Shown: positions 7,137-53,251, counted from the first letter of the stretch. The stretch: DNA of 64,000 nt from Bacteroidia bacterium (GCA_965655315.1 CBFHGJ010000001.1:207907-271906), one strand, 5' to 3'. The notes: generated by a model not told the origin, from the sequence alone. Made by a program: numbers and translations.

Positions 7137-7790
7137 ATGAATTTGATGTTTTTTTCAATTTTAGTGGGAGCTCCAATTGTGGTATCTATGGGAGTGTTAA
7201 TCTTAGGTATATTGATGGTTTTTGGTTTTACTCTTGGAGAAACGACATATACGTTGTACGAGAACGGGCTACAGCAGAATATAAAAACTTACATTCCATA
7301 TAAGGTACTAAATAGAACAAAAGTGAGATTCATTCTTTGGGAAACAATACGTTCATACAAATCAGATATTGACGTTGGTAAAAGCATGAAAGAGTACGAA
7401 TATCTGAAACTGAAACTTAGAAAATCTCCGTTTAAAATCTGGATAACGGACCAGATTGACAGGCATGGATTTGTGACCTTTCGAGACGATTTTATTGATA
7501 AGGTTGAAGAGTATAATTACAATCATTCAAAGAACAAAAATCTAGAATCGACAACAGTTGTGAAAGCAAGTGAACCTCATTCAGACGAGAAAGCAAGAAT
7601 TGAAAATACTCCTAGTTTTTACGGTACGCTTGCCTCTAAAATTCTAACAGTCTTTTTTGTAGGATTAGTAGTTGCTATTCAGTACTACGCGAATAATATT
7701 GGATTAAGCCCTGGAAGTTCTTTTAAGTTGAATGTTGTATTAATACCCAGCACAGCTTACCTAATTTACCGAACATTTGGAAGGAAATAG
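7137..7790 (+). CDS. hypothetical membrane protein
   Basis: ORF with N- and C-terminal transmembrane segments. Confidence 0.4.
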   Translation: MNLMFFSILVGAPIVVSMGVLILGILMVFGFTLGETTYTLYENGLQQNIKTYIPYKVLNRTKVRFILWETIRSYKSDIDVGKSMKEYEYLKLKLRKSPFKIWITDQIDRHGFVTFRDDFIDKVEEYNYNHSKNKNLESTTVVKASEPHSDEKARIENTPSFYGTLASKILTVFFVGLVVAIQYYANNIGLSPGSSFKLNVVLIPSTAYLIYRTFGRK

Positions 7791-7880
7791 TAATACTGTA
7801 ATGATAATATTTCAATCACATCGAGAGTTTATTCTAAAGATAGAGATTTAACTCTTTGTCATACTAAATTCGCAGTACGA

Positions 7881-9875
7881 ATGACATTTTACGAACCGTC
7901 CTTTTTGTGGGCATTGGGGTTGCTTCTGATTCCAATTCTCATTCATTTGTTTAACCTGAGAAAGTATAAGCGTGTTACATTTTCCAATGTGGAAATGCTT
8001 AAGGAGCTTCATACTCAAAGTAGAAAGACAAGGCAGATTAAAAAGTGGCTAGTGTTATTATCTAGACTTCTAGCTCTTGCTTTCTTAATACTTGCTTTTG
8101 CTAGGCCTTTTATACCCAAGACTAATATTGAGAATGGTAAATCTTTAGTCAGCATTTATTTAGACAATTCTCAAAGTATGCTTGCTGAAGGCGAGGATGG
8201 TCAACTGTTTGAAAATGGAAAGAACATAGCAAGAGATATTTTGGATATGCTACCTAACGATATAGATGTGCAGTTTTTAGATAATAGACTCAGTCCATAT
8301 ATAAATAAGGTATTCGCTCCTGAGCAAGCTGAGAGTTTAGTAGATAATTTAGAGTCGGATTATTTTGCAAATGACTTAAAGCTAGTCTTGGAACGAGCTA
8401 AAAGAGTGAAGCAGATCGAAGGTTATGGTGCACATCACGTTTTTTTAATATCGGATTTTCAAAAAAACAAAAGTGAATTGGTTGTGGATTTTGACTCATC
8501 ATCTGTGCTCAATGCAGTCAAAATGATGCCCGTATCCTCACAGAATTTATCTATCGATACAGCTTGGATAGATGCCCCTATTGTTAAGCCGGGGAGCCCA
8601 TTAAAGATTTATGTTAAAGTAACTAACAATGGGGATTCTGATGTTGAGTCATCTACGATAACTCTGAAGGTAAACGAGGTACAGCAAGGCTTCGAGAGCT
8701 TTGGTCTTGTAGCCCAAAGTTCTGAAACTTTTGAGATGGAAATAAGCACAACGCAGGCTGGTTGGATTGAAGGAGAATTTAGTATTTCTGATGTCCCAGT
8801 TGTATTTGATAATAGTTATTTCTTCTCGCTTTTAGTTAAACCTAGTATTCAAGTTTTAAGTATTGGTGAAAGTTCAAAATCTTTGCAAAAGCTGTTTCAA
8901 AAAAGTCAATCATTTGAGTTAACAGAGGCTAAGGCAGGTGAAGTGAATTATTCTCAGCTTGGTACTTTTGATTTTATTATTTTAAATAGTCTCCCTTCAA
9001 TCACCAGTGGATTAACTGAGCAACTTGGCCAGTTTCTTCAGTCTGGGGGTGCTGTTTTAGTAATTCCGTCAGCAAGGTCAGATAAATATTCGGAGTTTTC
9101 AAGAACTTTGGGACTTCCATTCTATTTGAGTGAAGAAAATAGAAACGCGAGTATTTCCGCTGAAAACCTTAATCAGTCTTTTATTGCCGATGTTTATAAA
9201 AGAGTTCCTAAAAATGTAAGATTACCCAAAGTCTTTAAAAGCTTTGAAATGCAAAGAAGTGCAAGATCAAAAGTTTTGCTCAAACTTAAAGACGGAAGTT
9301 CTATTTTAACTAGTACACCTGTGGGTACTGGTGTGGTATTCCAGTTCGCAATGCCATTATCTTCTGATTATAGTACAATTGTTGACCACGAAATTTTTGT
9401 ACTCTCTATGCTAAAGATGGCTTTTAGCAGAAACGAACAACGTTATCTTGCAGCTTCGGTACATAGCAAAGAGCCAATACCGATAGTAACTTCAGACCAG
9501 AGTCAACAGCTATACTTGGATCAAGGAGATAATAATATCGTGTTAGAAACTGCACCGAATAAGAATGGGACCAGAGTCTGGCTGAATGACGAGGTAGTCG
9601 AAGCTGGAGTTTTTACTTTACGAAATAGATCAAAAAATGATGTAGGAAGGCTGGCTTTAAACTATAAAAGGATGGAATCTAAACAGAAATTCTATTCAGA
9701 TGAAGAACTGGAGAATGGGCTTGGAGAGATCAATATAGTTTCTGAAAATTTCTCTGAACTGAAATCAACTGTAGATCAAGTGAGCAGTGGCAAGTCATTA
9801 TGGAAACTGTTCCTAGCTTTGAGTTTGTTATTTCTTCTTATCGAGGTACTTTTGTTGAGGTTTTTAAAGACTTAA
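7881..9875 (+). CDS. BatA (aerotolerance) N-terminal domain-containing membrane protein
   Basis: N-terminus FLWALGLLLIPILIHLFNLRKYKRVTFSNVEML matches the BatA_N double-TM motif; C-terminal TM anchor. Confidence 0.65.
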   Translation: MTFYEPSFLWALGLLLIPILIHLFNLRKYKRVTFSNVEMLKELHTQSRKTRQIKKWLVLLSRLLALAFLILAFARPFIPKTNIENGKSLVSIYLDNSQSMLAEGEDGQLFENGKNIARDILDMLPNDIDVQFLDNRLSPYINKVFAPEQAESLVDNLESDYFANDLKLVLERAKRVKQIEGYGAHHVFLISDFQKNKSELVVDFDSSSVLNAVKMMPVSSQNLSIDTAWIDAPIVKPGSPLKIYVKVTNNGDSDVESSTITLKVNEVQQGFESFGLVAQSSETFEMEISTTQAGWIEGEFSISDVPVVFDNSYFFSLLVKPSIQVLSIGESSKSLQKLFQKSQSFELTEAKAGEVNYSQLGTFDFIILNSLPSITSGLTEQLGQFLQSGGAVLVIPSARSDKYSEFSRTLGLPFYLSEENRNASISAENLNQSFIADVYKRVPKNVRLPKVFKSFEMQRSARSKVLLKLKDGSSILTSTPVGTGVVFQFAMPLSSDYSTIVDHEIFVLSMLKMAFSRNEQRYLAASVHSKEPIPIVTSDQSQQLYLDQGDNNIVLETAPNKNGTRVWLNDEVVEAGVFTLRNRSKNDVGRLALNYKRMESKQKFYSDEELENGLGEINIVSENFSELKSTVDQVSSGKSLWKLFLALSLLFLLIEVLLLRFLKT

Positions 9876-12688: not shown

Positions 12689-13826
12689 ACGTGTAGTTAT
12701 TGTTGGGTCTGCATATCCACTTCGTGGTGGAGGTATCACTACTTTCAATGAACTTCTCGCAACCAAGCTTCAACAAGCAGGACACGAAGTAAAAATAATC
12801 ACTTTCAGTCTACAGTACCCTAAGTTTCTATTCCCAGGTAAAACACAGTATTCAGACGAGGTAAGAGCTGAGCATCTTGATATTGAAGTCACTGTAAACT
12901 CTATAAATCCATTCAATTGGATAAGGGAAGGCTTACGTATCAAAAAAATGGAAGCTGATCTTGTCCTATTTAGGTATTGGATTCCATTTATATCTCCTTG
13001 TCTTGGTACGATAGCTAGAATTGTGAGAAGGAATAAAGTATCACGGATTGTTGCTATAACGGATAATATCATTCCCCACGAACCTACTCTTATAGACAAA
13101 CCGCTTACAAGGTATTTTTTAGGAAGCTGTGATGGTTTTGTAACAATGAGTAAGGCAGTGCTTGAGGACCTCAATACCTTTAAGGTTGCTCAACCTAAAG
13201 CGTATAATCCTCATCCTATGTATGAAAGTTTTGGGGAATCAATAGAAAAACATAATGCTAGGGAGAAACTTGGACTGAATAAAGATGATAAATATCTTTT
13301 ATTCTTCGGTTTCATTAGAAAGTATAAAGGTTTAGATGTTTTACTCGAGGCATTTTCAGATGCCAGAATACAAAAAAAAGGAATTAAACTAATTATTGCT
13401 GGTGAGTATTATGATAGCCCAGAGTTGTATGAGTCCATTATTGAAAAACATGGAATGAAGGATGCTATTTTTCAAGTCAGCGATTTCATTCCAGACAGCG
13501 AGGTAAGTTCCTATTTCTGTGCGTCAGACTTGGTGGTGCAAACCTATAAAACAGCAACCCAAAGTGGAGTTACGCAGATAGCTTACTACTACCATAAACC
13601 AATGTTAGTTACTGACGTAGGAGGATTATCAGAACTTGTTCCAGATCAAAAAGTAGGATATGTTACAGCTATAGACACAAAACAAATAGCAGATGCTATT
13701 TTAGACTTTTATGACAACGGTAGAGAGCAAGAATTTATATCCAACATAAATGAGGAACGAAAACGCTTTACTTGGGACAGTATGATAGAAAAACTGTTGG
13801 AGGTAAGCAATTCTTCTCTGGATTAG
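12681..13826 (+). CDS. glycosyltransferase family 4
   Basis: N-terminal VVIVGSAYPLRGGG and a GT-B fold pattern, with the C-terminal E-x7-E region. Confidence 0.7.
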   Translation: MGKRVVIVGSAYPLRGGGITTFNELLATKLQQAGHEVKIITFSLQYPKFLFPGKTQYSDEVRAEHLDIEVTVNSINPFNWIREGLRIKKMEADLVLFRYWIPFISPCLGTIARIVRRNKVSRIVAITDNIIPHEPTLIDKPLTRYFLGSCDGFVTMSKAVLEDLNTFKVAQPKAYNPHPMYESFGESIEKHNAREKLGLNKDDKYLLFFGFIRKYKGLDVLLEAFSDARIQKKGIKLIIAGEYYDSPELYESIIEKHGMKDAIFQVSDFIPDSEVSSYFCASDLVVQTYKTATQSGVTQIAYYYHKPMLVTDVGGLSELVPDQKVGYVTAIDTKQIADAILDFYDNGREQEFISNINEERKRFTWDSMIEKLLEVSNSSLD

Positions 13827-13874
13827 AAGCTGGGTATGACCGTTGTTCAGCACATTCTACTTGTTGCCTAGTAT

Positions 13875-15299
13875 TTACTTCTGCACTTCAAAAGCACCAA
13901 TATCAATTGGGTCTATTCTAGGCCTGTCAGAATAATCATCTAGTATTCTTGGAGTTAGCTCTTGACCTTTGTCTTTAGCGGGAGAAAGAGAATCTAAGTC
14001 GTAATTGTATACGTCAGTATCTATAAATAAAGGGTCCTTATTCAATATGTTATTCCCAATTCCATAGACATTTGATTCCTCAGTAGAAATGAGGTTATTT
14101 TGTATCAAACTCGGTTGTCCCAATAGGTTGCCAGTTGTATCTACGTCTCCTACAATTTCACCTTCAAGGTTGGTCCCATAAATTATATTATTTCTAAAGT
14201 CATAACGAATGGGATATACCGCAAGTACCCTTCCAAACTCATCCCGGGTTCTATTGGTGTAGCCAAATGTCTGTGTATTCCGGATAGAGCTTAGTCTGCC
14301 AGTATAGAACGTATTATTTCTCAAGTAATAGTCTCCTCCTTCTTGTGCTAGAAATGTATATCTGCCACAATCAGCCGATATGCTGTTCTGCATAATGATT
14401 CGACTGCCTCTACCTGCTACACCGTCAAAGCTCATGTTTCTAATCATTGTCTTGCTGATAGTCACATTTTCACTATCGGGTTCACCAGGAATAGTATCAC
14501 AATAGATACCGACCGTACCATTTTTTATAATGGCATGTTCTATAAAGCTTCCGTAAGTCGGCCAGTTAAACCATATTCCTCCCCATTGACCAGGACGTTC
14601 CTCCCAATCAGGCTGCAAGCGGTCACCTTGCATTAGTACTGGCTCGTCTTTAGTACCTCTTACTTCAAGTTCTCCTTCTACGAATAGCCAGCTTCTGGGG
14701 GCACTATGTATTTGCATTCCCTTTTCGATAGTCAATTTTACATCGGGTTTTACATAGCAATAGCCGTAAATCACAATAGGTAAATTAGCATTTGCCCAGG
14801 TAGTATCTTGTTCTATACTATCCCTAAAGATATAATGAGCGTCTTGTCCCCAACCAATGAGCATGGTTTTACTATCGTTGCCGTTAGTACTGTAGAGTAT
14901 CGAATCTCTGATGATAAGTGGATTGAAATCAGGGCTGTTATTATTTGGATCTGGATGTACTTCCAAAAACAGAAAAATACTGTCATTTGGAAGTATTTCA
15001 ATGTCAGAAAAAATATGTCCAGATTCGCCATCTACGTTCAATCTGAAATGCGAATTTTCACCTCCACCCAAGCGGATATTCGTTCGTATTGATTCCGAAT
15101 GGGGGTTGTATAGTAGGATTTGTTTGTTGGCTGAAAGAGGAAGGCGTTCAGTTACTTTGGTAAAGACCGTATCAAACCATAAAGTGTCTGTATTAACTTG
15201 TATGGTATCGCTAGACGATGTAGTGAAACTCTCCTTCCTGCAAGCAGATAATAGGGTGCAGATACCAACAATAAGTAGGAGGTTTTGAACTAATTTCAT
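13875..15299 (-). CDS. right-handed parallel beta-helix repeat lipoprotein
   Basis: Internal start MKLVQNLLLIVGICTLLSAC (lipobox) chosen over the longer ORF; repeated NxxI/GxxxG beta-helix-like periodicity. Confidence 0.55.
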   Translation of the reverse strand: MKLVQNLLLIVGICTLLSACRKESFTTSSSDTIQVNTDTLWFDTVFTKVTERLPLSANKQILLYNPHSESIRTNIRLGGGENSHFRLNVDGESGHIFSDIEILPNDSIFLFLEVHPDPNNNSPDFNPLIIRDSILYSTNGNDSKTMLIGWGQDAHYIFRDSIEQDTTWANANLPIVIYGYCYVKPDVKLTIEKGMQIHSAPRSWLFVEGELEVRGTKDEPVLMQGDRLQPDWEERPGQWGGIWFNWPTYGSFIEHAIIKNGTVGIYCDTIPGEPDSENVTISKTMIRNMSFDGVAGRGSRIIMQNSISADCGRYTFLAQEGGDYYLRNNTFYTGRLSSIRNTQTFGYTNRTRDEFGRVLAVYPIRYDFRNNIIYGTNLEGEIVGDVDTTGNLLGQPSLIQNNLISTEESNVYGIGNNILNKDPLFIDTDVYNYDLDSLSPAKDKGQELTPRILDDYSDRPRIDPIDIGAFEVQK

Positions 15300-45101: not shown

Positions 45102-45143
45102 TTCAACCTACACTTATGCTCCTGCGTCACAGATACCCATAGC

Positions 45144-45304
45144 CATCATTCTTCAAGCGGTGTACTTCAAACTCATATTCACATTGAGTTATAGAGATAA
45201 CTAGGAGCTTTTGAAAAGCAGAGGGGTACAAGTAGATCACTCCACACTTCAAAGGTGGGTGTTTAAGTTCAGACCAATGATTGAAACCAAGGCATTCCAA
45301 GGGT
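45144..45304 (+). mobile_element. IS6-family transposase N-terminal remnant (pseudogene with in-frame TAG)
   Basis: IILQAVYFKLIFTLSYRDN*ELLKSRGVQVDHSTLQRWVFKFRPMIE resembles IS26 Tnp DIILWAVRWYCKYGISYRELQEMLAERGVNVDHSTIYRWVQRYAPEME. Confidence 0.55.
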
Positions 45305-45545
45305 GAGTTTCGTGTCACAGTTGGGAACGTATTGACAGGGGCCATTTAAAATTTAAGGAGGTTGTAAGCAGATGGAGTTCCTAGTTTTTCATTTTTTTGG
45401 CAAAATATTTTTTTTCGTCTTTTCACCATTTTTTTGAAAAATATTTCATTCGCGCCATCGAGCCCCCTATATCTAAGTCCCTAAACGATATATAAGGTGG
45501 GATACCCCCTACCTGATAGGAGGGAGGAGATCCCCGGATCTAATT

Positions 45546-45700
45546 TTGATTGGCGCCATCTCACAATATAGAGTGTCGGTTTCATAGGAACTGAGTCTGG
45601 TATTTGTATTTCGAAACAGGAGGAGGAATGGTTTGATCCTGGAAGGGATCATGAATATTGATTGGCATATCCAGAATTTGAGATCTATTTCCAGGTAGTT
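45546..45700 (+). promoter_or_regulatory. three direct copies of (A)TTGATTGGC upstream of the serine recombinase gene
   Basis: Copies at 45546-45554, 45658-45666 and 45692-45700; an inverted copy lies at 46673-46681 downstream of the gene. Confidence 0.5.
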
Positions 45701-45841
45701 ATTGATTGGCCCAACTAAAACATCACATTTTGGGGTATACTTTTTTTTGTGATGTCCATTTTGGTAAAAAACATAGATTTTATGCTGCATATGTGTGTTT
45801 TGGCTATACTTTTAGGGTGCATACATAATAACCCTAAAAAA

Positions 45842-46465
45842 ATGAGTAATTCAATACTGTATACGAGAGTTTCATCCATAGATCAAAGAACAGATCGACA
45901 GAGAGTAAATGAAAAGAGTTATGACCTAGTTATTGAGGATAAATGCCCAGGGGATTTGGAAATATTTCTAAGACCAGAAGGTTCTAGGTTGAAAACTATG
46001 ATAGACAGGAATTTAGTTGGTTCGATTTCTGTTTGGTCGATTGATCGTTGTGGCCGTAACCTTCGGAACATTATTGACTTTATCTATTACACAACCGAAC
46101 GCAGAATTCCAGTAACCTTTATTTCTCAAGGTTTATGTACGTTAGATGAAAATGGTGATGAGAATCCAATAGCTAAGATGTTCATATCCATATTAGGTTG
46201 TGTTGCAGAAATGGAGAGAAGTCAGATAAAGGAGAGGCAAAGGCAGGGAATCGACTTAGCCTTGCTAGATCCAAATAAGTATTTAGGACGTAAACCTGGA
46301 AGTCAAGAAACAGTTCTGCAGTTTCTTTCGAAGAAGAAAAACAAACAGGCCATGGATTTACTACAGAAAGGATATAAGAATATTGAGGTTTCCAAAATCG
46401 CTGGATTACACCCTAATACAATATCAAAGATTAAAAAGTACCTTAATGTCTCAAATCCCGGGTGA
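45842..46465 (+). CDS. small serine recombinase (resolvase/invertase family)
   Basis: N-terminal ILYTRVSSIDQRTDRQ catalytic-Ser motif; C-terminal HTH; start taken at the Met in MSNSILY to give the canonical N-terminus. Confidence 0.85.
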   Translation: MSNSILYTRVSSIDQRTDRQRVNEKSYDLVIEDKCPGDLEIFLRPEGSRLKTMIDRNLVGSISVWSIDRCGRNLRNIIDFIYYTTERRIPVTFISQGLCTLDENGDENPIAKMFISILGCVAEMERSQIKERQRQGIDLALLDPNKYLGRKPGSQETVLQFLSKKKNKQAMDLLQKGYKNIEVSKIAGLHPNTISKIKKYLNVSNPG

Positions 46466-46672
46466 ACATTTTTTAAACTGTATTACAAAATACCATAACT
46501 TGAACCGTATGAGTCTCGGTGTTGAATCACTCCTGTAATATGTCGGAAGTGTATTCAAACCTAATTCACAAATGGATTTAGTCCGCTTGATAGCTGTTAA
46601 ACAGGGTTTGGAGAGATTTATTAGATAAGAATGAACTTACTTTAAACGGAGGTCAATTCCTTAGACTTAATT

Positions 46673-46681
46673 GCCAATCAA
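46673..46681 (-). promoter_or_regulatory. inverted copy of the TTGATTGGC motif downstream of the resolvase gene
   Basis: GCCAATCAA is the reverse complement of TTGATTGGC; flanks match the upstream copies (AATATTGATTGGCAATT on the minus strand). Confidence 0.45.
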
Positions 46682-46785
46682 TATTTCCACACTATCCAGA
46701 CCCAGAATTCCGTCTCAGACCATTTCAATGTGGAATTATTGCCATCAGATTCTAGTTCTGATTAGTAATAAAACCATAGCGTTCC

Positions 46786-46986
46786 TTACGACAAATTCTG
46801 CGAATTGTTTTCTATAGAATCATCAGTTTTGCTTTCAGGTAATTCAGATATGTTAGGTGTTTTTATTACTATGGATTGAAGTAAACGCCTGTATTGTTTT
46901 CTGTTTAAGCCAAGGGATTTCATAATTTCTTTGTTCATGATTGAGGTTTTATAATAAGTATGTGATACTTCAAAAACTATTTGCAT
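46786..46986 (-). CDS. small hypothetical protein
   Basis: 66-aa ORF; no motif recognised; may be spurious. Confidence 0.2.
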   Translation of the reverse strand: MQIVFEVSHTYYKTSIMNKEIMKSLGLNRKQYRRLLQSIVIKTPNISELPESKTDDSIENNSQNLS

Positions 46987-47027
46987 AAGGAGTTCTCTGT
47001 TGCTACTTTTATACCCAATCTTTAAAT

Positions 47028-48167
47028 ATGGATATTAAAATAGCATACCTCTCGCATAGGGGACGGTCAGATATGGAAGATGTGGTTGCTATGTTTTCTA
47101 AGGATGTAGGGCCAATCACATTTCAGTTAATTGATCATACGAATTCTTCAGAGTATTATTTACTGCATCGTGAACTTGAAAATATAGACTCGGAAAACTT
47201 TAAGAGACTGAGTAAGCTGATAAGGGAAGAAGTTGGATTAAAGGACGATGATGTTCTAGTTATTGTTTCACCTCGAGAACTTAATTCTCCATATAAACTT
47301 GAGAACTCATTTAAAAACTGGGTGAGTTACTATATTAAGAACAATATTATTATTAGGTCTAGCGGCTACGATAAGGTGACCGAGGGTAAGCCATATCTCG
47401 GCGGAGCCTACCAAATCATTGAAAACCTATTTCAAAATTTGGGAGGGATTGACCTAGCTGTATTAGTGGAAAATGAAAGAATTCATTTCGAACCTGAAGG
47501 TTGCGTTAATGATTTCGCTGAGGAGTTTAAGCAGGTTAAATACAAAATGCGGTCTGGATTCATCTGTGAAAAATGCAAAGAAGCAGCGTTGAATTCAGAA
47601 TCATCCAGAATGGATAAGGGAGCACTCCATCAGATAGAAAATATCTTGAACAGAATCGGTAATCGACTGAAGGATAATTATACGATTAATTATACTCCTG
47701 ATGAGTTAAAGATTGAGGTAATACTTGAACGCAATCCACATAAACTTTACGCTCGTCCTAGATGTAGGATGAAAATTGGCAATAAAACAATCAATTTTGG
47801 AAGAAGAGGGGAGTTGATGACTGTTCGATACGTTTTTTACTTAATAAACCATAACCTACCAATAGGAAAATATGATTTCATTGGTGATGGAGTTTATAAT
47901 GATGCAGCAGAAAAGTATAAACTGCTGTATGAAAAAATACAGGGGAGTGTCACTTCAAAAACATTAGGGGATTACATTGATAACCTATCCAAACTTCATG
48001 ACAGAATATCAAACCGGATAATTAATGAGGTTCAGAATGATTACATAGGAGATCTATACAGCCTTAGATCATTAAAGACAAATAAAACTGACACCTGCTA
48101 TATTATCAATGTAGAGCCTGATAACATTGATATCCCAGAAGAGCTTATGGAATTCAGAGTAGCATAA
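47028..48167 (+). CDS. hypothetical protein, possible TIR-like N-terminal domain plus Cys-cluster middle region
   Basis: KIAYLSHRGRSDMEDVV resembles the TIR beta-A motif (FxSFRGEDTR); DDDVLVIVSPRELNSPYKLENSF resembles TIR beta-C/alpha-C; CEKC and RPRCR Cys pairs. Confidence 0.3.
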   Translation: MDIKIAYLSHRGRSDMEDVVAMFSKDVGPITFQLIDHTNSSEYYLLHRELENIDSENFKRLSKLIREEVGLKDDDVLVIVSPRELNSPYKLENSFKNWVSYYIKNNIIIRSSGYDKVTEGKPYLGGAYQIIENLFQNLGGIDLAVLVENERIHFEPEGCVNDFAEEFKQVKYKMRSGFICEKCKEAALNSESSRMDKGALHQIENILNRIGNRLKDNYTINYTPDELKIEVILERNPHKLYARPRCRMKIGNKTINFGRRGELMTVRYVFYLINHNLPIGKYDFIGDGVYNDAAEKYKLLYEKIQGSVTSKTLGDYIDNLSKLHDRISNRIINEVQNDYIGDLYSLRSLKTNKTDTCYIINVEPDNIDIPEELMEFRVA

Positions 48168-48231
48168 AGTCGAAATTATCTGTCGCGCGACACTTGAGGA
48201 TAAGGGTTGAAAATAGGGCCACCTTGGCTCT

Positions 48232-49842
48232 ATGTTTATCAAGAATTACACATCCGCAGAACTTAACATCAACGAAGTAAAAGTAGTTGAAGTATTAAGT
48301 AGTTTCTACGATCATCAAGATCAAAAATCAGAAGAGCAGCTAAGTTACTCTTTAAAGTCCAATGGTCAACTGTTACCACTTACAGTCTCAGCAAAAAATG
48401 AACTGATTGATGGGTATCGAAGACTTAATCTACTGCGTAGATTAGGAGTGAAGTCCGTCAAAGTTCAAATTGTAGATGAGCAACCTACACTTGAGTTGAG
48501 AGTGGCTTTGAACACTACTAGGATAAAAACGGAAAACGACCTAACTAAAGAGGTCATTCAAATCTTTAAATCTGTACCCAAAAGACAGGGGAGAGGTAAA
48601 GGTGATGAAAAGTATAGTCGGTACGCCATTATTCAAGAGGAATTGGATTACCGTTGGAAATCTTCTACAGCAATTCGTCAGATTGACAAGATTATCGAGA
48701 ATGATTTCGAGGATAACCTCCTAATGAAAGGTATCGTAACAAAAGGTTGGACATTGACTGATTGTGAGCGATATGTTGGTGGCTTAAAGAAGCTTGACGT
48801 TGATCGTGAATTAGGATACACTGAAAAACTCAAAAAGGGAGAAATCAATATAAATGAGGCTGTCAAGTTCATCACAGAAACAGTTGTTCTAAGCACTGAA
48901 TACCAAGATACCTTTATCATTCCAGATAGATCTTCATCTTTCAATTTGAACTGTAGGGATATTAACCAGTTAGTTCAATTCAAAGGTCAAGTTCCATTTA
49001 TCTTTACGTCGATACCTTACTATTCGGTTCGATATTATAATACTGGTGAAGGGAGTGACCAGTTAGGGCACGAAAGAACGCCTGAACAGTTTGCTGCCAA
49101 CATTGGAAAAATCATTAGTAGGTTCGAATTCCTAATAAATCCCACATCAAATGTTATGATCAATATAGGAGAAACTTATAGAAATGGTTGTGCACTTGAT
49201 ATTCCAGGATTAGTAAAAAATGCAATCAAAGAACATACGGGACTCACTTATAAGGATACATTGATATGGAGTAAACCAAACCCTCATCCTCAAGGTGAAA
49301 AGGTGAATCGTCCTACGAATAATACCGAAGTAATACTCTGGTTTGTTGTAGATCCAGCTAAGTCCAAGTACAATCACCTGAAGTACACAGACGAGAAGAA
49401 ACAAATAGGTATTACCAAAGGAGCCAAGGATGTAAACCAAAATGGGGTTGTTTCAAAGAAATCCAAGTCTCTTTCAAAACCTTACAAGAAGATCTATAAC
49501 CATCTAGCAGCCCAAGATGTGAATAGAATGATCAAATGTGCTGTTGGAGGGAATAAGCCTGTTCAAGAAGCCTCTATCCTAAGTCACCCTGCAATGATGG
49601 CTGAGTTGTTACCTGTTGTGCCAATTTTAATGACGACAGACGAGAATGACCTAGTTTTTGATCCCTTCGGAGGTGTTAATACCACGGGTAGAATTGCCAA
49701 TCTGTTGAATCGAAGATATCTATCAACAGAACTAACATCTCAGTATTATCAAGTTGGATGTAAGGTTATGGAAAACGCACAGAAGGAGTTTAACCAGGAC
49801 GAATTATCAATAGTCCTAAATGAATTTAATGAAGCAGCATAA
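48232..49842 (+). CDS. ParB-like nuclease domain fused to an N6/N4 DNA methyltransferase domain
   Basis: LPLTVSAKNELIDGYRRLNLLRRLG is a ParB/Srx DGxxR motif; FIFTSIPYY is a motif IV variant; DPFGGVNTTGRIANLLNRRYLSTEL is a DPFxGSGTT AdoMet motif. Confidence 0.7.
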   Translation: MFIKNYTSAELNINEVKVVEVLSSFYDHQDQKSEEQLSYSLKSNGQLLPLTVSAKNELIDGYRRLNLLRRLGVKSVKVQIVDEQPTLELRVALNTTRIKTENDLTKEVIQIFKSVPKRQGRGKGDEKYSRYAIIQEELDYRWKSSTAIRQIDKIIENDFEDNLLMKGIVTKGWTLTDCERYVGGLKKLDVDRELGYTEKLKKGEININEAVKFITETVVLSTEYQDTFIIPDRSSSFNLNCRDINQLVQFKGQVPFIFTSIPYYSVRYYNTGEGSDQLGHERTPEQFAANIGKIISRFEFLINPTSNVMINIGETYRNGCALDIPGLVKNAIKEHTGLTYKDTLIWSKPNPHPQGEKVNRPTNNTEVILWFVVDPAKSKYNHLKYTDEKKQIGITKGAKDVNQNGVVSKKSKSLSKPYKKIYNHLAAQDVNRMIKCAVGGNKPVQEASILSHPAMMAELLPVVPILMTTDENDLVFDPFGGVNTTGRIANLLNRRYLSTELTSQYYQVGCKVMENAQKEFNQDELSIVLNEFNEAA

Positions 49843-51406
49843 GATGAAAGTAAGAAAGTATACATATAGGGTTGCAATACCAATGAACATCGATGCAGAA
49901 TCTCTTGTGCAAGAACTAAATATTGAATCTAGATTAACTCAAAAGACAGTGAAAAATAAGATAGTTAGGGTGATATCTAGACTAACTAGAACACATCGAA
50001 ACTCAAGATACTTTTACCATGATAACCATATCAGAATTTGCTCCAAGGAATTACAAAAAATACTAAACAGAGATTACGAAAAAGTATTAAATCTCCTAAA
50101 AACAGAAGGCATAATTGAAAATGGAAAAGATTATCTCCCTGGTGACAGATGCAGCAAATATCGATTAAAACACAAGTGTCAATATGTTAAATATAAATAC
50201 AAAACCATCACCATAAGACAAAAGGAGATTGAGAGTAAAACAAAACTATTAGACTCATACTTCAATGATAAAATCACTATAAAGAGTGATGATATTTATC
50301 CTAAACTCATAAAGTTTTACTCGGAAGTAGAAAAACAACTAAAAACACCTAAACAAATCAAAATACTTAAAAATTGGATAGGTATGATGTTACTGTTGAT
50401 AGAAGATATCGACAAAAATGAATTTTGGAAAAGTAGATCAGCATCAAATAAAAGATACAATTCTTCAATAACCAATATATCAAAGAAATTCAGAGGATAT
50501 CTAAAATATGACAATCAGCAACTGATTCAAGTAGATGTAAAATCTAGTCAGGTTTATGTATTAGCTAGTTTGCTTAATCATCAATTCTTTAAACAAAAAG
50601 GAGATTATTCATTCTATAGATTAACAAAAGATCTAATTGATAAGAAAACAAGAAAAGAGGTTATGCTTTACATGTTTTCCACATTAATGTTTGCGCAATT
50701 TTCTAGTAAACCTATAGGAGATATTTCCCCGGACACCTTAGATCATGAGGAATTTAAAAAGTTTCGAGACGCACCATTTTCTGAAGATTTCTATTCCCAC
50801 ATTTGTCATTTGGAAAATAACTCATTCCCAAGTTCAGAAGAAAGAGATGCAATTAAGTCTGGCATCATGTATCTACTCTTTCAAGACTTGTATGCACATC
50901 GTAAAAATGTTGAAAGTGTTAAACTATTCAAGCGAATTTATCCATTTGTAAACAGGTGTATAGAACGCCTTCTTTCAGATATTGGCAAGTCAAATTTCGC
51001 CTTGTTTCTCCAGAGGGCTGAAAGTTACCTAGTTCTTGATTGTATTGTACCTGAGTTTCACAGATTGTGTCCTGAAGCTCCAATTTTTACAATTCACGAT
51101 TCAATTCTAACAACTCAGAAATACAAGGATCAGTTATATGATGTTATGAATACGGTTTTAACTGAGAGAACGGGTATTAAACCCGGATTGACAGTTGAAA
51201 ACATAAAAGAGATAGATTTTACGCAAGAATCTTATGTCATCGAAATGGTCAATAGAATAATAAAAGATTCCAAGCCGTCACGTTATAAAGAGCTCAAGAA
51301 TTCACTTCTGAAAAATTGTATTGAAAAAGCTGAAGAATTTATTTCGGAGTGGAACGTAACCAGTAACCATATATCGAATGATAAAAAGGATATGGAAGAG
51401 AGCTGA
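49820..51406 (+). CDS. hypothetical protein with polymerase-like palm motifs (Pol I / T7-RNAP type)
   Basis: Motif A-like QVDVKSSQVYVLASLL (D239); motif B-like KKTRKEVMLYMFSTLMF (K279, Y284); motif C-like IFTIHDSI (H426 D427), in the canonical A-B-C order. Confidence 0.35.
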   Translation: MNLMKQHKMKVRKYTYRVAIPMNIDAESLVQELNIESRLTQKTVKNKIVRVISRLTRTHRNSRYFYHDNHIRICSKELQKILNRDYEKVLNLLKTEGIIENGKDYLPGDRCSKYRLKHKCQYVKYKYKTITIRQKEIESKTKLLDSYFNDKITIKSDDIYPKLIKFYSEVEKQLKTPKQIKILKNWIGMMLLLIEDIDKNEFWKSRSASNKRYNSSITNISKKFRGYLKYDNQQLIQVDVKSSQVYVLASLLNHQFFKQKGDYSFYRLTKDLIDKKTRKEVMLYMFSTLMFAQFSSKPIGDISPDTLDHEEFKKFRDAPFSEDFYSHICHLENNSFPSSEERDAIKSGIMYLLFQDLYAHRKNVESVKLFKRIYPFVNRCIERLLSDIGKSNFALFLQRAESYLVLDCIVPEFHRLCPEAPIFTIHDSILTTQKYKDQLYDVMNTVLTERTGIKPGLTVENIKEIDFTQESYVIEMVNRIIKDSKPSRYKELKNSLLKNCIEKAEEFISEWNVTSNHISNDKKDMEES

Positions 51407-51515
51407 GTCGATTAGGCATAACAGGGGTTGACTTTTAGAATAATTTCCTGTATACTTTATCGTATGTGTCTGATATAAAGACCATTATAACGTAAAATCT
51501 ATTATATATGACGGA

Positions 51516-51653
51516 ATGAACAAGCAAGATTCAATAAGAACAATCAAGGAGGAGCTAGCAGATGTTCCGAGAACAGACATAACGCTAATCATCAACCTTT
51601 TGAATAAATTAGCTCAAATTGAATACGACAATTACGTAAAACTAAACCAATGA
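51516..51653 (+). CDS. 45-aa ORF translationally coupled to the large serine recombinase (possible recombination directionality factor or regulator)
   Basis: MNKQDSIRTIKEELADVPRTDITLIINLLNKLAQIEYDNYVKLNQ; the stop overlaps the integrase ATG (ATGA). Confidence 0.3.
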   Translation: MNKQDSIRTIKEELADVPRTDITLIINLLNKLAQIEYDNYVKLNQ

Positions 51654-53212
51654 GAACAATTATCTACAAACGGGTAAGCACTGATGATCAAGCCGATCGA
51701 GGATATTCACTTCAACATCAGGAAAGTGTAATGAGACAATACTGTGAATTGAATAATTACCCTATTGTAAATATATACACTGAAGATTTTAGTGGTAAAG
51801 ATTTTAATCGTCCAGAATGGGTTAAAATTATAAATTATCTCAAGAAGAATAGGGGTGAGGTAGATCAGATATTATGTCTTCGTTGGGACCGTTGGTCAAG
51901 GAATCAATATTTGGCACTCAAAGAAATTAAAACACTAGAAAAATACGGAGTCCTCATATCAACGGTGGAACAGCCAATAGACCTTTCAAGCCCAGACAGT
52001 AAGGTGCTTTTGAGCTTATACCTGACACTCCCAGAAGTTGAAAACGATAAAAACAGTATTAGAACTACTGAAGGGATGAGGAGGTCGCGCATTGAAGGCT
52101 GTTGGACAGGTGCTGCTCCTCGTGGTTATGATAATTGCAAGATTGACAACAAGTCAACCTTAATACCAAACGAGGCTGCACCATACATAAAAGAATGTTT
52201 CGAAAGATTTGCTCTAGGAATATATTCAGCCAATGAAGTTAGAAAGTACATTAATGGAAAGAAGTATTCTTATAAACGTGGAACATTCTACTTGAGTAAA
52301 TCAACCTTCTATAATACAATCCGGAATATTGCATACACAGGTAAAATAAAAGTAAAAGCGTGGAAGAAAGAACCGGAGCAAATAATAGTTGGTCGTCACC
52401 CTCCGATAGTGTCTGACGTCCTTTTTAAGAGGGCCAATGATTATCTGGAGGGAAGGGTTAGAAATTGTGACTTTAAATCTGAAAAAAGTGACCTATACCC
52501 TTTAAAAGGATTTATGAGATGTTCCAAACACGATCGTGCTATTACCGCGTATAAATGTCAAAGTAGAAATAAAACTTGGCACCATTACTATCTGTGTACT
52601 AAACCAAAATGTCGAAGGTTCAGAGTGGATTGGGCGCACGAACAGATTAAAAACCTTTTGGATAAGATCTCTTTTACTGCAGGTATGGTTAAGGTTTACA
52701 AATCGCAGCTTGAGGCACTGATAGATAGAGAGGATGTCACAAGAAAGACTGAAATCAAGCGATTAAATGAGTCAATTGAAAACTATGGTCGTCGACAATT
52801 AAAACTACAGAATTCTTTTCTTGATGGAGATATTACCTCCGTTGATTACAATGGGATGAAGTCCAGAATTGAGTCTGAGATTAGTGAAAAAAAGGATCAA
52901 CTATCAAATTTGAAGTCTGTAAAGAGTCCTTTTAAGGTGTATCTCAATAAAACTCTTCCAATGATTGAAAACCTAAGCCAGTATTGGGATGAGGCGGATG
53001 GTGAGACTAAAAGGAAAATTCTTGGTTGCATCTTTAAGGAAAACTTCGAAAATTTTGATTTTGAGAGTTGCAACCAGATATTCACTCCAGAGATTGAATC
53101 TATTCTGTTGGCCAGCAAGGTTTTGAGAAATGATGTAAATAAAAAGGAGGTCAAAAATGACCTCCTGTCTATAATGGCGCCCTCACCTGGACTCGAACCA
53201 GGGACCTATTGA
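51650..53212 (+). CDS. large serine recombinase (integrase)
   Basis: TIIYKRVSTDDQ catalytic Ser; recombinase domain; zinc ribbon CSKHDR...CTKPKC; coiled-coil; the 3' end overlaps tRNA-Asn. Confidence 0.85.
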   Translation: MRTIIYKRVSTDDQADRGYSLQHQESVMRQYCELNNYPIVNIYTEDFSGKDFNRPEWVKIINYLKKNRGEVDQILCLRWDRWSRNQYLALKEIKTLEKYGVLISTVEQPIDLSSPDSKVLLSLYLTLPEVENDKNSIRTTEGMRRSRIEGCWTGAAPRGYDNCKIDNKSTLIPNEAAPYIKECFERFALGIYSANEVRKYINGKKYSYKRGTFYLSKSTFYNTIRNIAYTGKIKVKAWKKEPEQIIVGRHPPIVSDVLFKRANDYLEGRVRNCDFKSEKSDLYPLKGFMRCSKHDRAITAYKCQSRNKTWHHYYLCTKPKCRRFRVDWAHEQIKNLLDKISFTAGMVKVYKSQLEALIDREDVTRKTEIKRLNESIENYGRRQLKLQNSFLDGDITSVDYNGMKSRIESEISEKKDQLSNLKSVKSPFKVYLNKTLPMIENLSQYWDEADGETKRKILGCIFKENFENFDFESCNQIFTPEIESILLASKVLRNDVNKKEVKNDLLSIMAPSPGLEPGTY

Positions 53213-53251
53213 TTAACAGTCAACCGCTCTAACCAGCTGAGCTATGAAGGC
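53175..53251 (-). tRNA. tRNA-Asn (GTT)
   Basis: GCCTTCATAGCTCAGCTGGTTAGAGCGGTTGACTGTTAATCAATAGGTCCCTGGTTCGAGTCCAGGTGAGGGCGCCA: 7-bp acceptor stem, D and T arms, anticodon loop CTGTTAA, CCA encoded. Confidence 0.85.

Follow-up and report, generated by a model that had tools for sequence, protein, structure and literature searches.

Described replication elements and the present locus

Previous studies on mobile elements with their own replication enzymes defined the TV-Pols, relatives of the family-A polymerases that are reduced to 400-600 aa (Iyer, Abhiman and Aravind 2008; PMC2579912). They are found in Bacteroidetes (Cytophaga, Polaribacter, Psychroflexus, Flavobacteriales) and in other phyla, have gamma-delta resolvases or lambda integrases as neighbours in hot spots rich in restriction-modification (RM) genes, and are predicted prim-pols, proposed to unite RNA-primase and DNA-polymerase activity (PMC2579912). 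TV-Pols are biochemically uncharacterised outside SCCmec, and the only biochemistry is that of CcPol-MP (PMC7581432, PMC10061031), an A-family polymerase carried by the SCCmec cassette, which is mobilised by large serine recombinases (LSRs) and in which CcPol-MP adjoins the Ccr LSRs; it has been shown experimentally to be a primase, and primes with dNTPs (PMC7581432). Here we describe a compact integrative mobile element of ~7.6 kb, lying at about 45551 to 53175-53181 in a 64,000-nt stretch of DNA (hereafter the window; GCA_965655315.1, CBFHGJ010000001.1:207907-271906) from a metagenome-assembled genome (MAG) of a marine Bacteroidota bacterium. We consider it fairly probable that this is a self-priming integrative element of the TV-Pol type, in which three adjacent genes, here called B, C and D, form a replication and maintenance backbone and not a defence system. 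The element class was predicted in 2008 and has never been studied in Bacteroidota; what is new is its architecture, the very large unannotated family of gene D, the gene B protein and a possible recombinase switch.

An earlier reading of the sequence alone (the initial annotation) had placed a tRNA-Asn-associated element between two serine recombinases here. Its open reading frames (ORFs) were all found again in an ORF map, and the ORFs, their domains and a comparison of empty with occupied insertion sites bear this description out. The features of the element are:

45546-45560, no strand: probable attL, with TGGCGCC at 45551-45557 as a direct copy of the tRNA-Asn 3' terminus
45654-45667, + strand: left arm of a 14-nt perfect inverted repeat (AATATTGATTGGCA), an extension of the second copy of the 9-mer TTGATTGGC
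45842-46465, + strand: small serine recombinase of the invertase/resolvase type with a C-terminal helix-turn-helix, 207 aa (PF00239, 2.7e-18)
46672-46685, - strand: right arm of the 14-nt inverted repeat, an extension of the fourth TTGATTGGC copy
46786-46986, - strand: small divergent ORF, 66 aa, no family match, coding status uncertain
47028-48167, + strand: gene B, archaemetzincin-like domain without HExxH, Zn ribbon and OmpR/PhoB-type winged helix
48232-49842, + strand: gene C, ParB/Srx-fold N-terminal domain and beta-class N6/N4 DNA methyltransferase (MTase)
49820-51406, + strand: gene D, 528 aa, N-terminal winged helix and predicted minimal family-A (Pol I/T7-like) polymerase domain, no exonuclease
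51650-53212, + strand: LSR (integrase), 520 aa, with Resolvase, Recombinase and Zn_ribbon_recom domains
53145-53166, - strand: intrinsic-terminator hairpin for tRNA-Asn (terminator scoring), inside the 3' coding end of the LSR gene and followed by a T-run
53175-53251, - strand: tRNA-Asn(GTT) (ARAGORN and Rfam), with the attR junction at its 3' end (53175)

Gene D has the predicted fold of a minimal family-A polymerase

The polymerase-like A, B and C motifs that the initial annotation had read in gene D prove to be invariant across its family and to lie in a model with a family-A-like fold. In a fold search the AlphaFold2 model (pLDDT 85) matches family-A polymerases and then single-subunit RNA polymerases, with ~290 residues aligned, and the match extends over palm, fingers and thumb. 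Alignment to homologues places the likely start of the gene at 49844, one base past the stop codon of gene C. Residues 1-150 form a beta-rich domain that includes a winged helix (MarR-type matches), and the model contains no exonuclease domain. Helices 156-171 and 177-198 make up a two-helix thumb directly before a beta-hairpin (strands 204-206 and 213-215) that carries R212. D239 is at the end of the first palm strand (233-240), the R342xxxK346 motif lies in a long helix (339-354) at the O-helix position of the fingers, and H426 and D427 occupy the beta-turn-beta of motif C (hairpin 423-425/428-432). Among 27-32 sequences at 17-47% identity (alignments A1 and A3), R212, D239, Q244, Y325, K346, E401, T424, H426 and D427 are invariant and R342 is near-invariant (at least 90% of sequences).

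These are the features by which TV-Pols are recognised (PMC2579912). Gene D shares their size, the lack of an exonuclease, the two-helix thumb, the Arg in a beta-hairpin, an RRM palm with two Asp residues and the RxxxK of the fingers after the first palm strand; its loci, like theirs, have no fused or linked nuclease and combine resolvases, integrases or transposases with RM hot spots. There are also differences. The N-terminus of the TV-Pols is the all-helical TV-PolN, whereas that of gene D consists of beta-strands and a winged helix, and neither the partnership with a ParB-MTase and a pseudo-metzincin nor targeting of tRNA-Asn by an LSR is described in PMC2579912.

Comparison with CcPol-MP-Cch2 (PMC7581432; PMC10061031) shows the same use of an A-family polymerase, in place of a conventional primase, on a small cassette moved by an LSR. 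CcPol, however, matches ordinary PolA models and retains part of the 3'-5' exonuclease domain, and it needs an OB-fold partner (MP) and a helicase (Cch2) from the same operon, whereas gene D, unlike the CcPol-type primases, has a winged helix of its own. The pairing with a single-stranded DNA-binding protein (SSB) that marks the PolA-SSB primases (PMC10061031) was not found, there being no ORF between gene D and the LSR gene and no helicase in the element; ORFs of 83-135 aa that adjoin gene D in some relatives gave no OB-fold or SSB match, one being GNAT-like and one winged-helix-like. The known examples of CcPol-MP are from Firmicutes only, whereas the present element is from Bacteroidota. 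A reclassification of PolA enzymes in 2023 mentions neither Bacteroidetes nor any such minimal family on mobile genetic elements besides the CcPols (PMC10201439). Pipolins, as outlined in one source (PMC10201439 ref. 7), are likewise integrative elements at tRNA genes with their own primer-independent DNA polymerase (piPolB), but as described there the polymerase belongs to family B, the recombinases are tyrosine recombinases and the gene set is unrelated.

By analogy with these systems, gene D probably acts as a primase-polymerase of the TV-Pol/CcPol type found on mobile genetic elements, and probably belongs to the TV-Pol lineage; we predict that it is both a primase-polymerase and the replication initiator of the element. 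It would then be among the smallest PolA-type enzymes, and a candidate primase unrelated to DnaG and to the archaeo-eukaryotic primases (AEPs), a class shown so far for CcPol-MP only.

A second identity for gene D, as a DNA-dependent RNA polymerase (a T7-like single-subunit transcriptase, or an enzyme that makes RNA primers only), seems to us quite improbable. Its motif C reads HDS, which we take to be the sequence of T7 RNA polymerase as well, and this point favours such an enzyme. The position that presumably corresponds to T7 Y639 and Pol I Y766 is, however, Phe in most family members, and an invariant Gln appears from the same alignment (A1) to occupy the steric-gate position; both residues speak against an RNA polymerase, as does the fact that no promoter-recognition or specificity-loop modules are evident in the 528 residues. 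The RNA-primase activity proposed for TV-Pols alongside DNA synthesis (PMC2579912) again points towards RNA, whereas the characterised analogue, CcPol-MP, uses dNTPs (PMC7581432).

Genes B, C and D as a probable conserved backbone

The gene D family is very large, with 8,891 clusters (50% identity) at E<=1e-3 and 3,186 at E<=1e-30 in a full profile search. None of 47 relatives returned by a word-indexed search has a Pfam domain, and all are named 'hypothetical protein'; likewise none of 32 diverse family members matches a Pfam polymerase family, and three of the 32 carry HNH_3/NUMOD4 homing-endonuclease modules. Gene D itself has no match in Pfam, NCBIfam, PHROG or PADLOC, and none in the PDB by HMM. 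Naming the family as minimal family-A polymerases would thus annotate thousands of genes at the core of Bacteroidota islands that carry RM, BREX and other cargo. Distant relatives of the polymerase domain occur in three 'uncultured phage' genomes of 630-735 kb (LR745206.1, LR756502.1, LR756501.1) and in many IMG/VR contigs (L102-L180).

Genomic context was screened with phmmer at 80 GTDB loci (114 hits in total, mostly Bacteroidota). An MTase gene is present at 19 of these 80 loci, gene B at eight, a gene for a protein of 150 aa at ten, an LSR gene at 14 and a tyrosine integrase gene at 25, the integrase often within 2 kb of the gene D homologue; an HTH_17 excisionase-like gene is similarly placed in many loci. 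In most of the closest relatives (L015-L021, L023-L030) a gene C homologue lies directly upstream of gene D; one of these, L015 (contig JABIUV010000052.1, 'MAG: Bacteroidetes bacterium SI072_bin56'), is 100% identical to the window. Gene B lies directly upstream of gene C in every case seen. In three loci (L001, L004 and L012) the genes follow a fixed order, which runs from a small resolvase and a ~150-aa protein through small reverse ORFs to B, ParB-MTase and D and closes with an LSR or, alternatively, an HTH_17 protein; the ~150-aa gene that follows the small recombinase in these relatives is absent from the window copy. Elements of the LSR type are found at tRNA-Asn and those of the HTH_17 type at tRNA-Phe. 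The sister elements that end in HTH_17 in L002, L012, L019, L021 and L026 lie beside tRNA-Phe(GAA), and the tRNA-Phe 3' end of L021 is part of a 31-nt direct repeat (154-184 and 14682-14712).

Variable genes are found outside the B-C-D block, upstream of the small recombinase, where L001 has an MmeI-type RM system and L004 a BREX system. The initial annotation had regarded the three genes as cargo of the element. Because gene C adjoins gene D in most close relatives, and because the BREX and MmeI cargo lies outside the block, we conclude instead that a family of elements has B-C-D, or C-D at the least, as its conserved backbone. That the gene order is not a described system, as the annotation had it, is true of the order B-C-D but not of the combination of a polymerase with a resolvase or integrase, which was predicted in 2008 (PMC2579912).

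The most direct information on the role of gene D comes from locus L011. Here a gene B that is 73% identical to that of the window is followed by a ParB-MTase, an AEP-type primase, an HTH_17 protein and an integrase. The primase (416 aa, 12843-14093, - strand) has a BT4734-like_N domain (score 31 bits, cut-off 22.4) and a C-terminal winged helix. This is a clean non-orthologous displacement between primase/polymerase folds; an AEP primase fills the slot of gene D, and we therefore argue that gene D is the priming or replication protein of the element. In another locus, L010, the gene D homologue stands beside a VapE/DUF5906 protein.

The same evidence bears on a role in defence or anti-defence, which the initial annotation had considered. 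In such a system the methylase might, for instance, mark self, and invaders or host restriction would be the targets of the polymerase-like enzyme and of the metzincin-like sensor. Relatives do lie in defence islands, with BREX and MmeI as above and EcoRII/Vsr, type I RM and GmrSD nearby in other loci, but such neighbours are explained by tRNA-linked integration hot spots, as noted for TV-Pol elements (PMC2579912). Fusions of a ParB fold with an N6_N4 MTase are enriched on prophages, phages and other mobile elements, where they are suspected of a part in anti-defence (PMC12704722), and orphan MTases in plasmid leading regions shield incoming DNA (PMC7736820); an anti-restriction role of gene C alone is, however, compatible with B-C-D as a replication backbone. 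PADLOC 2.0 yields generic MTase models only and has no match for B or D, an AEP primase takes the place of gene D in L011, and the wider D family occurs with integrases and excisionases but without B or C. A defence or anti-defence system thus appears decidedly unlikely, and the evidence favours the other possibility that the annotation had raised, a self-contained replication and modification unit.

Genes B and C

Gene C was identified as a fusion of a ParB domain with an MTase in the initial annotation, and the profile matches agree. The MTase half matches N6_N4_Mtase (PF01555, 1.4e-28), and the translation shows motif IV (SIPY) ahead of motif I (DPFGG). For the N-terminal half the Pfam ParB_N match is weak and below the cut-off (E 0.019), but PHROG ParB families match at 4.7e-07 to 3e-05 and TIGR00180 at 6e-04, and a ParB box of the GxxRxxA type, DGYRRL, can be read from the translation. 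The domain architecture and the enrichment on mobile elements are those of the ParB-fold/N6_N4 MTase fusions of phages and plasmids (PMC12704722). Among plasmids and phages gene C has no close homologue, the matches being confined to the MTase half and not exceeding 27% identity. Orphan MTases are known that are linked to plasmid replication of the PolI type and to single-stranded DNA (PMC7736820). The stop codon of gene C is one base before the likely start of gene D. In L100, a 99%-identical copy of the element, gene C (7205-8816) is called as two genes, a ParB part of 151 aa and an MTase part of 372 aa, a split that reflects a frameshift or nonsense variant, or else an error of assembly.

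Gene B has 29 relatives, none with an annotated domain. Its structure model is confident (pLDDT 87) and resembles the archaemetzincins (AmzA; PDB 2x7m, 3zvs, 3lmc), from which it differs in two respects: the helix that carries HExxHxxGxxH in those enzymes reads [H/Y]QIIENxFQNLG in gene B ([H/Y]QxxENxFQxxG as a pattern), and an OmpR-type winged helix is fused to the domain. Residues H153, C159, C180 and C183 are invariant among relatives and form a Zn-ribbon-like site; together with C164 they match the Cys-rich zinc site located after this helix in the archaemetzincins. In the window copy the near-invariant H128 is replaced by Tyr and C164 by Ala. The initial annotation had suggested a possible TIR-like N-terminus and Cys clusters, of which the Cys cluster is real, as the invariant residues show, and the TIR assignment was rejected, the fold search giving no TIR fold. 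The HExxHxxGxxH zinc site of a metzincin or archaemetzincin peptidase is absent as well. Gene B is probably not a peptidase, and from its model is best seen as a winged-helix DNA binder joined to a pseudo-protease/Zn-ribbon sensor domain.

Integration at tRNA-Asn and extent of the element

The LSR gene has the three domains of an integrase of its class and matches phrog_95 'integrase' at 2.1e-73. As the initial annotation had noticed, it reads into tRNA-Asn; the ORF terminates 38 nt inside the tRNA gene, so that its last 12 codons and the stop codon come from the tRNA gene, and the same overlap is seen in the divergent elements L017, L018 and L033. The last 12 residues are encoded by the tRNA gene when the element is integrated, and would therefore differ in the excised form.

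An exact search of metagenome contigs with the 77-nt tRNA-Asn gave four loci, L095, L096, L097 and L098. Two of these, L095 and L097, are empty sites, with a host terminator hairpin after the tRNA 3' end (...AAACCCTAAACTATTACTAGTAAAGGGTTTGGG-TGGCGCC...). L096, from the same host lineage and with the same right flank as the empty sites, is occupied, and has the element end after the tRNA (...AGGAGGTCAAAAATGACCTCCTGTCTATGA-TGGCGCC...). The comparison of empty with occupied sites defines attB, and because of it the right junction can be set at the tRNA 3' terminus; the LSR is thus shown to insert the element at the 3' end of tRNA-Asn. In L098 a copy of the element is 95.4% identical to that of the window over 4.2 kb, whereas identity in the host genes on its right is no more than 72-77%, and we conclude that the element moves and has been mobile recently. 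It is present or absent between related hosts, common to different hosts, and better conserved than the hosts that carry it; its status as a mobile element goes beyond chance. The element also carries its own replacement terminator for the tRNA within the 3' end of its integrase gene. The 53145-53166 hairpin is kept in L017, L018, L096 and L098, with variants in L029 and L033, and is thus conserved with the element and not with the host; the empty sites bear a different, host hairpin after tRNA-Asn.

At the left, 45551 is the probable attL, giving an element of ~7.6 kb. TGGCGCC at 45551-45557 overlaps the first TTGATTGGC motif, is followed on the element side by ATCTCAC (ATCTCACAATATAG), and is the sole copy in the 16 kb upstream of the tRNA. 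Nucleotide homology with other elements starts at ~45713. In L033 an 11-nt copy of the terminus of its host tRNA (TGGCTCCCCCT), followed by ATCAACGATAG, lies 14.7 kb upstream of the tRNA and delimits a 14.7-kb element. LSRs leave a short shared core only, and long repeats are not expected of them. No direct repeat of the tRNA above 7 nt was found in the window, as expected for an integrase of this kind. A second, imperfect repeat is present to the left, where 45447-45458 (ATTCGCGCCATC) and 45549-45560 (ATTGGCGCCATC), 102 nt apart, form a 12-nt direct repeat with one mismatch; the outer copy may be a second, older attL-like scar of an earlier insertion at the same tRNA.

The 7.7-kb block might instead be the conserved end-module of a larger island that includes the adjacent copper and heavy-metal genes (at ~16-45 kb in the window) and has its left end further upstream, which we judge unlikely. 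In L001 and L004 the small recombinase gene is immediately preceded, on its own strand, by the MmeI and BREX cargo, and in the window metal-efflux and ATPase genes are directly upstream. The left flank of the empty site L097, moreover, finds no match in the window at the nucleotide or translated level, but the L097 host is only ~72-77% identical, and the lost synteny could be ordinary. The shorter element is favoured by the tRNA 3' end, whose unique copy at 45551 immediately precedes the stretch with homology to other elements, and by the 11-nt repeat of L033. GC content is flat across the region, giving no boundary signal in either direction, and is neutral between the two.

Nor is the element likely to be an inert relic with decaying genes, a reading that we regard as highly improbable. 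The division of gene C in L100, the missing ~150-aa gene and the substitutions at H128 and C164 of gene B could each be taken as decay, but the five main ORFs are all intact in the window, the catalytic residues of gene D and of both recombinases are kept, and the element is present or absent among close relatives with 95% identity between different hosts.

Proposed mode of replication

On the reading that we favour, of a TV-Pol-type element with B-C-D as its backbone, the winged-helix domain of gene D would recognise an origin on the excised circle, and replication would start there. The exonuclease-less family-A domain of the same protein would make the first primer or strand, in the manner of a TV-Pol 'prim-pol', and host enzymes would then take over. 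Gene C would methylate the DNA of the element, for self-protection from restriction in a new host or for the marking of new DNA, and its ParB-fold domain may be an NTP-gated DNA clamp or loader. Gene B would be a DNA-binding regulator of the B-C-D operon. The small recombinase would either resolve multimers of the replicating circle or flip a ~1-kb segment as an on/off switch.

Several results weigh against this reading. The assignment of gene D to family A is based on its modelled fold and invariant motifs only: Pfam DNA_pol_A (PF00476) matches neither gene D at E<=1 nor the 32 family members at E<=0.01, and hhalign of gene D against the polymerase domain of E. coli Pol I gave a spurious match only. 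As a TV-Pol reference we used MAP_030 of phage Ma-LMM01, a probable TV-Pol chosen by its position next to transposases. In comparison with gene D, MAP_030 was the best ORF but the match was non-significant (hhalign E 0.012, probability 3.6%; hmmsearch E 0.42), and a profile-profile comparison of the gene D family with MAP_030 relatives gave E 0.41; the two proteins show the same motif order, R...D...K...QxxE...HD, by eye only. Neither a helicase, an SSB or OB-fold partner, an iteron array nor an AT-rich origin was identified in the element, and autonomous replication is unproven. The functions of genes B and C are drawn from folds alone. As to extent, the left boundary is based on a 7-nt repeat and on analogy with L033, the left flank of L097 is unaccounted for as described above, and no circular form or attP junction (predicted as ...GACCTCCTGTCTATAA-TGGCGCC-ATCTCACAATATAG...) was found in a scan that covered viral contigs only.

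A bolder form of the proposal, which we hold to be tentative and rather unlikely, is that gene D is a stand-alone, origin-specific primase-polymerase that works without SSB or helicase and is physically coupled to gene C as a 'replicate-and-mark' module, in which exposed single strands are methylated and gene B acts as a switch. If true, such a module would represent a new class of replication initiator (at least 8,891 clusters), very widespread among the mobile elements and phages of Bacteroidota. Independently of this, a 7.6-kb element with a defined attB, natural empty sites and five genes is a tractable system for the study of excision, replication and spread, and its LSR, with the tRNA-Asn site, enlarges the known set of serine integrases.

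Small recombinase, repeats and left neighbourhood

The ORF of the small recombinase is listed as 45749-46465, with its likely true start at the ATG at 45842 (MSNSILYTRVSS...). It matches phrog_125 'DNA invertase' at 2.4e-32 and, weakly, the Mpi family of invertases. The 9-mer TTGATTGGC has four exact copies in the window, all within 45546-46681; three are direct and upstream of the recombinase gene (45546-45554, 45658-45666 and 45702-45710, + strand) and one is inverted and downstream of it (46673-46681, - strand), and the second and fourth extend into the 14-nt inverted repeat whose arms flank the gene on both sides. A different sequence is found in L001, where a 16-nt perfect inverted repeat (5010-5025/6355-6370) encloses the recombinase gene and a 148-aa gene, with extra copies upstream. 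The arrangement points to an invertible segment of the Hin kind or, alternatively, to res-type sites at which multimers are resolved, and the 14-nt arms and TTGATTGGC copies are candidate sites for the recombinase (as invertase or resolvase) or candidate iterons. Hin-type invertible segments and the Mpi-type invertons of Bacteroides are known invertase switches. The present locus resembles them in having an invertase-like serine recombinase gene between short perfect inverted repeats ~1 kb apart, but only a single orientation is seen, and the three direct upstream copies are more like a res-type accessory site. An inverted variant was not seen among assembled contigs, which included one further contig (L100), in the same orientation.

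A 61-nt non-coding stretch after the recombinase stop (46456-46516) is 98% identical to 8893-8953 of L011, whereas the genes of the two elements are only ~76% identical. It is a candidate cis-acting site or small RNA, with no Rfam match at the gathering threshold. The 46786-46986 ORF possibly encodes a regulator, and reverse ORFs of 55-93 aa occupy its position in relatives. A search of the element for iterons or tandem repeats as an origin gave nothing convincing, and a scan for sigma-70 promoters remained at background level, the sigma-70 model being unsuited to Bacteroidota.

To the left of the element, at ~45125-45360 (+ strand), the translation is broken by stop codons (...PIAIILQAVYFKLIFTLSYRDN, stop, ELLKSRGVQVDHSTLQRWVFKFRP...). 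It presumably resembles the N-terminus of an IS6-family transposase, has no Pfam match, and we do not claim it as an insertion sequence remnant. Directly left of the element is a copper and heavy-metal resistance island (~16500-44952), with genes for MbnP, a multicopper oxidase, two RND efflux systems, two P-type ATPases, HMA proteins and a FUR-like regulator. It may represent cargo, or an island that came into the same hot spot earlier.

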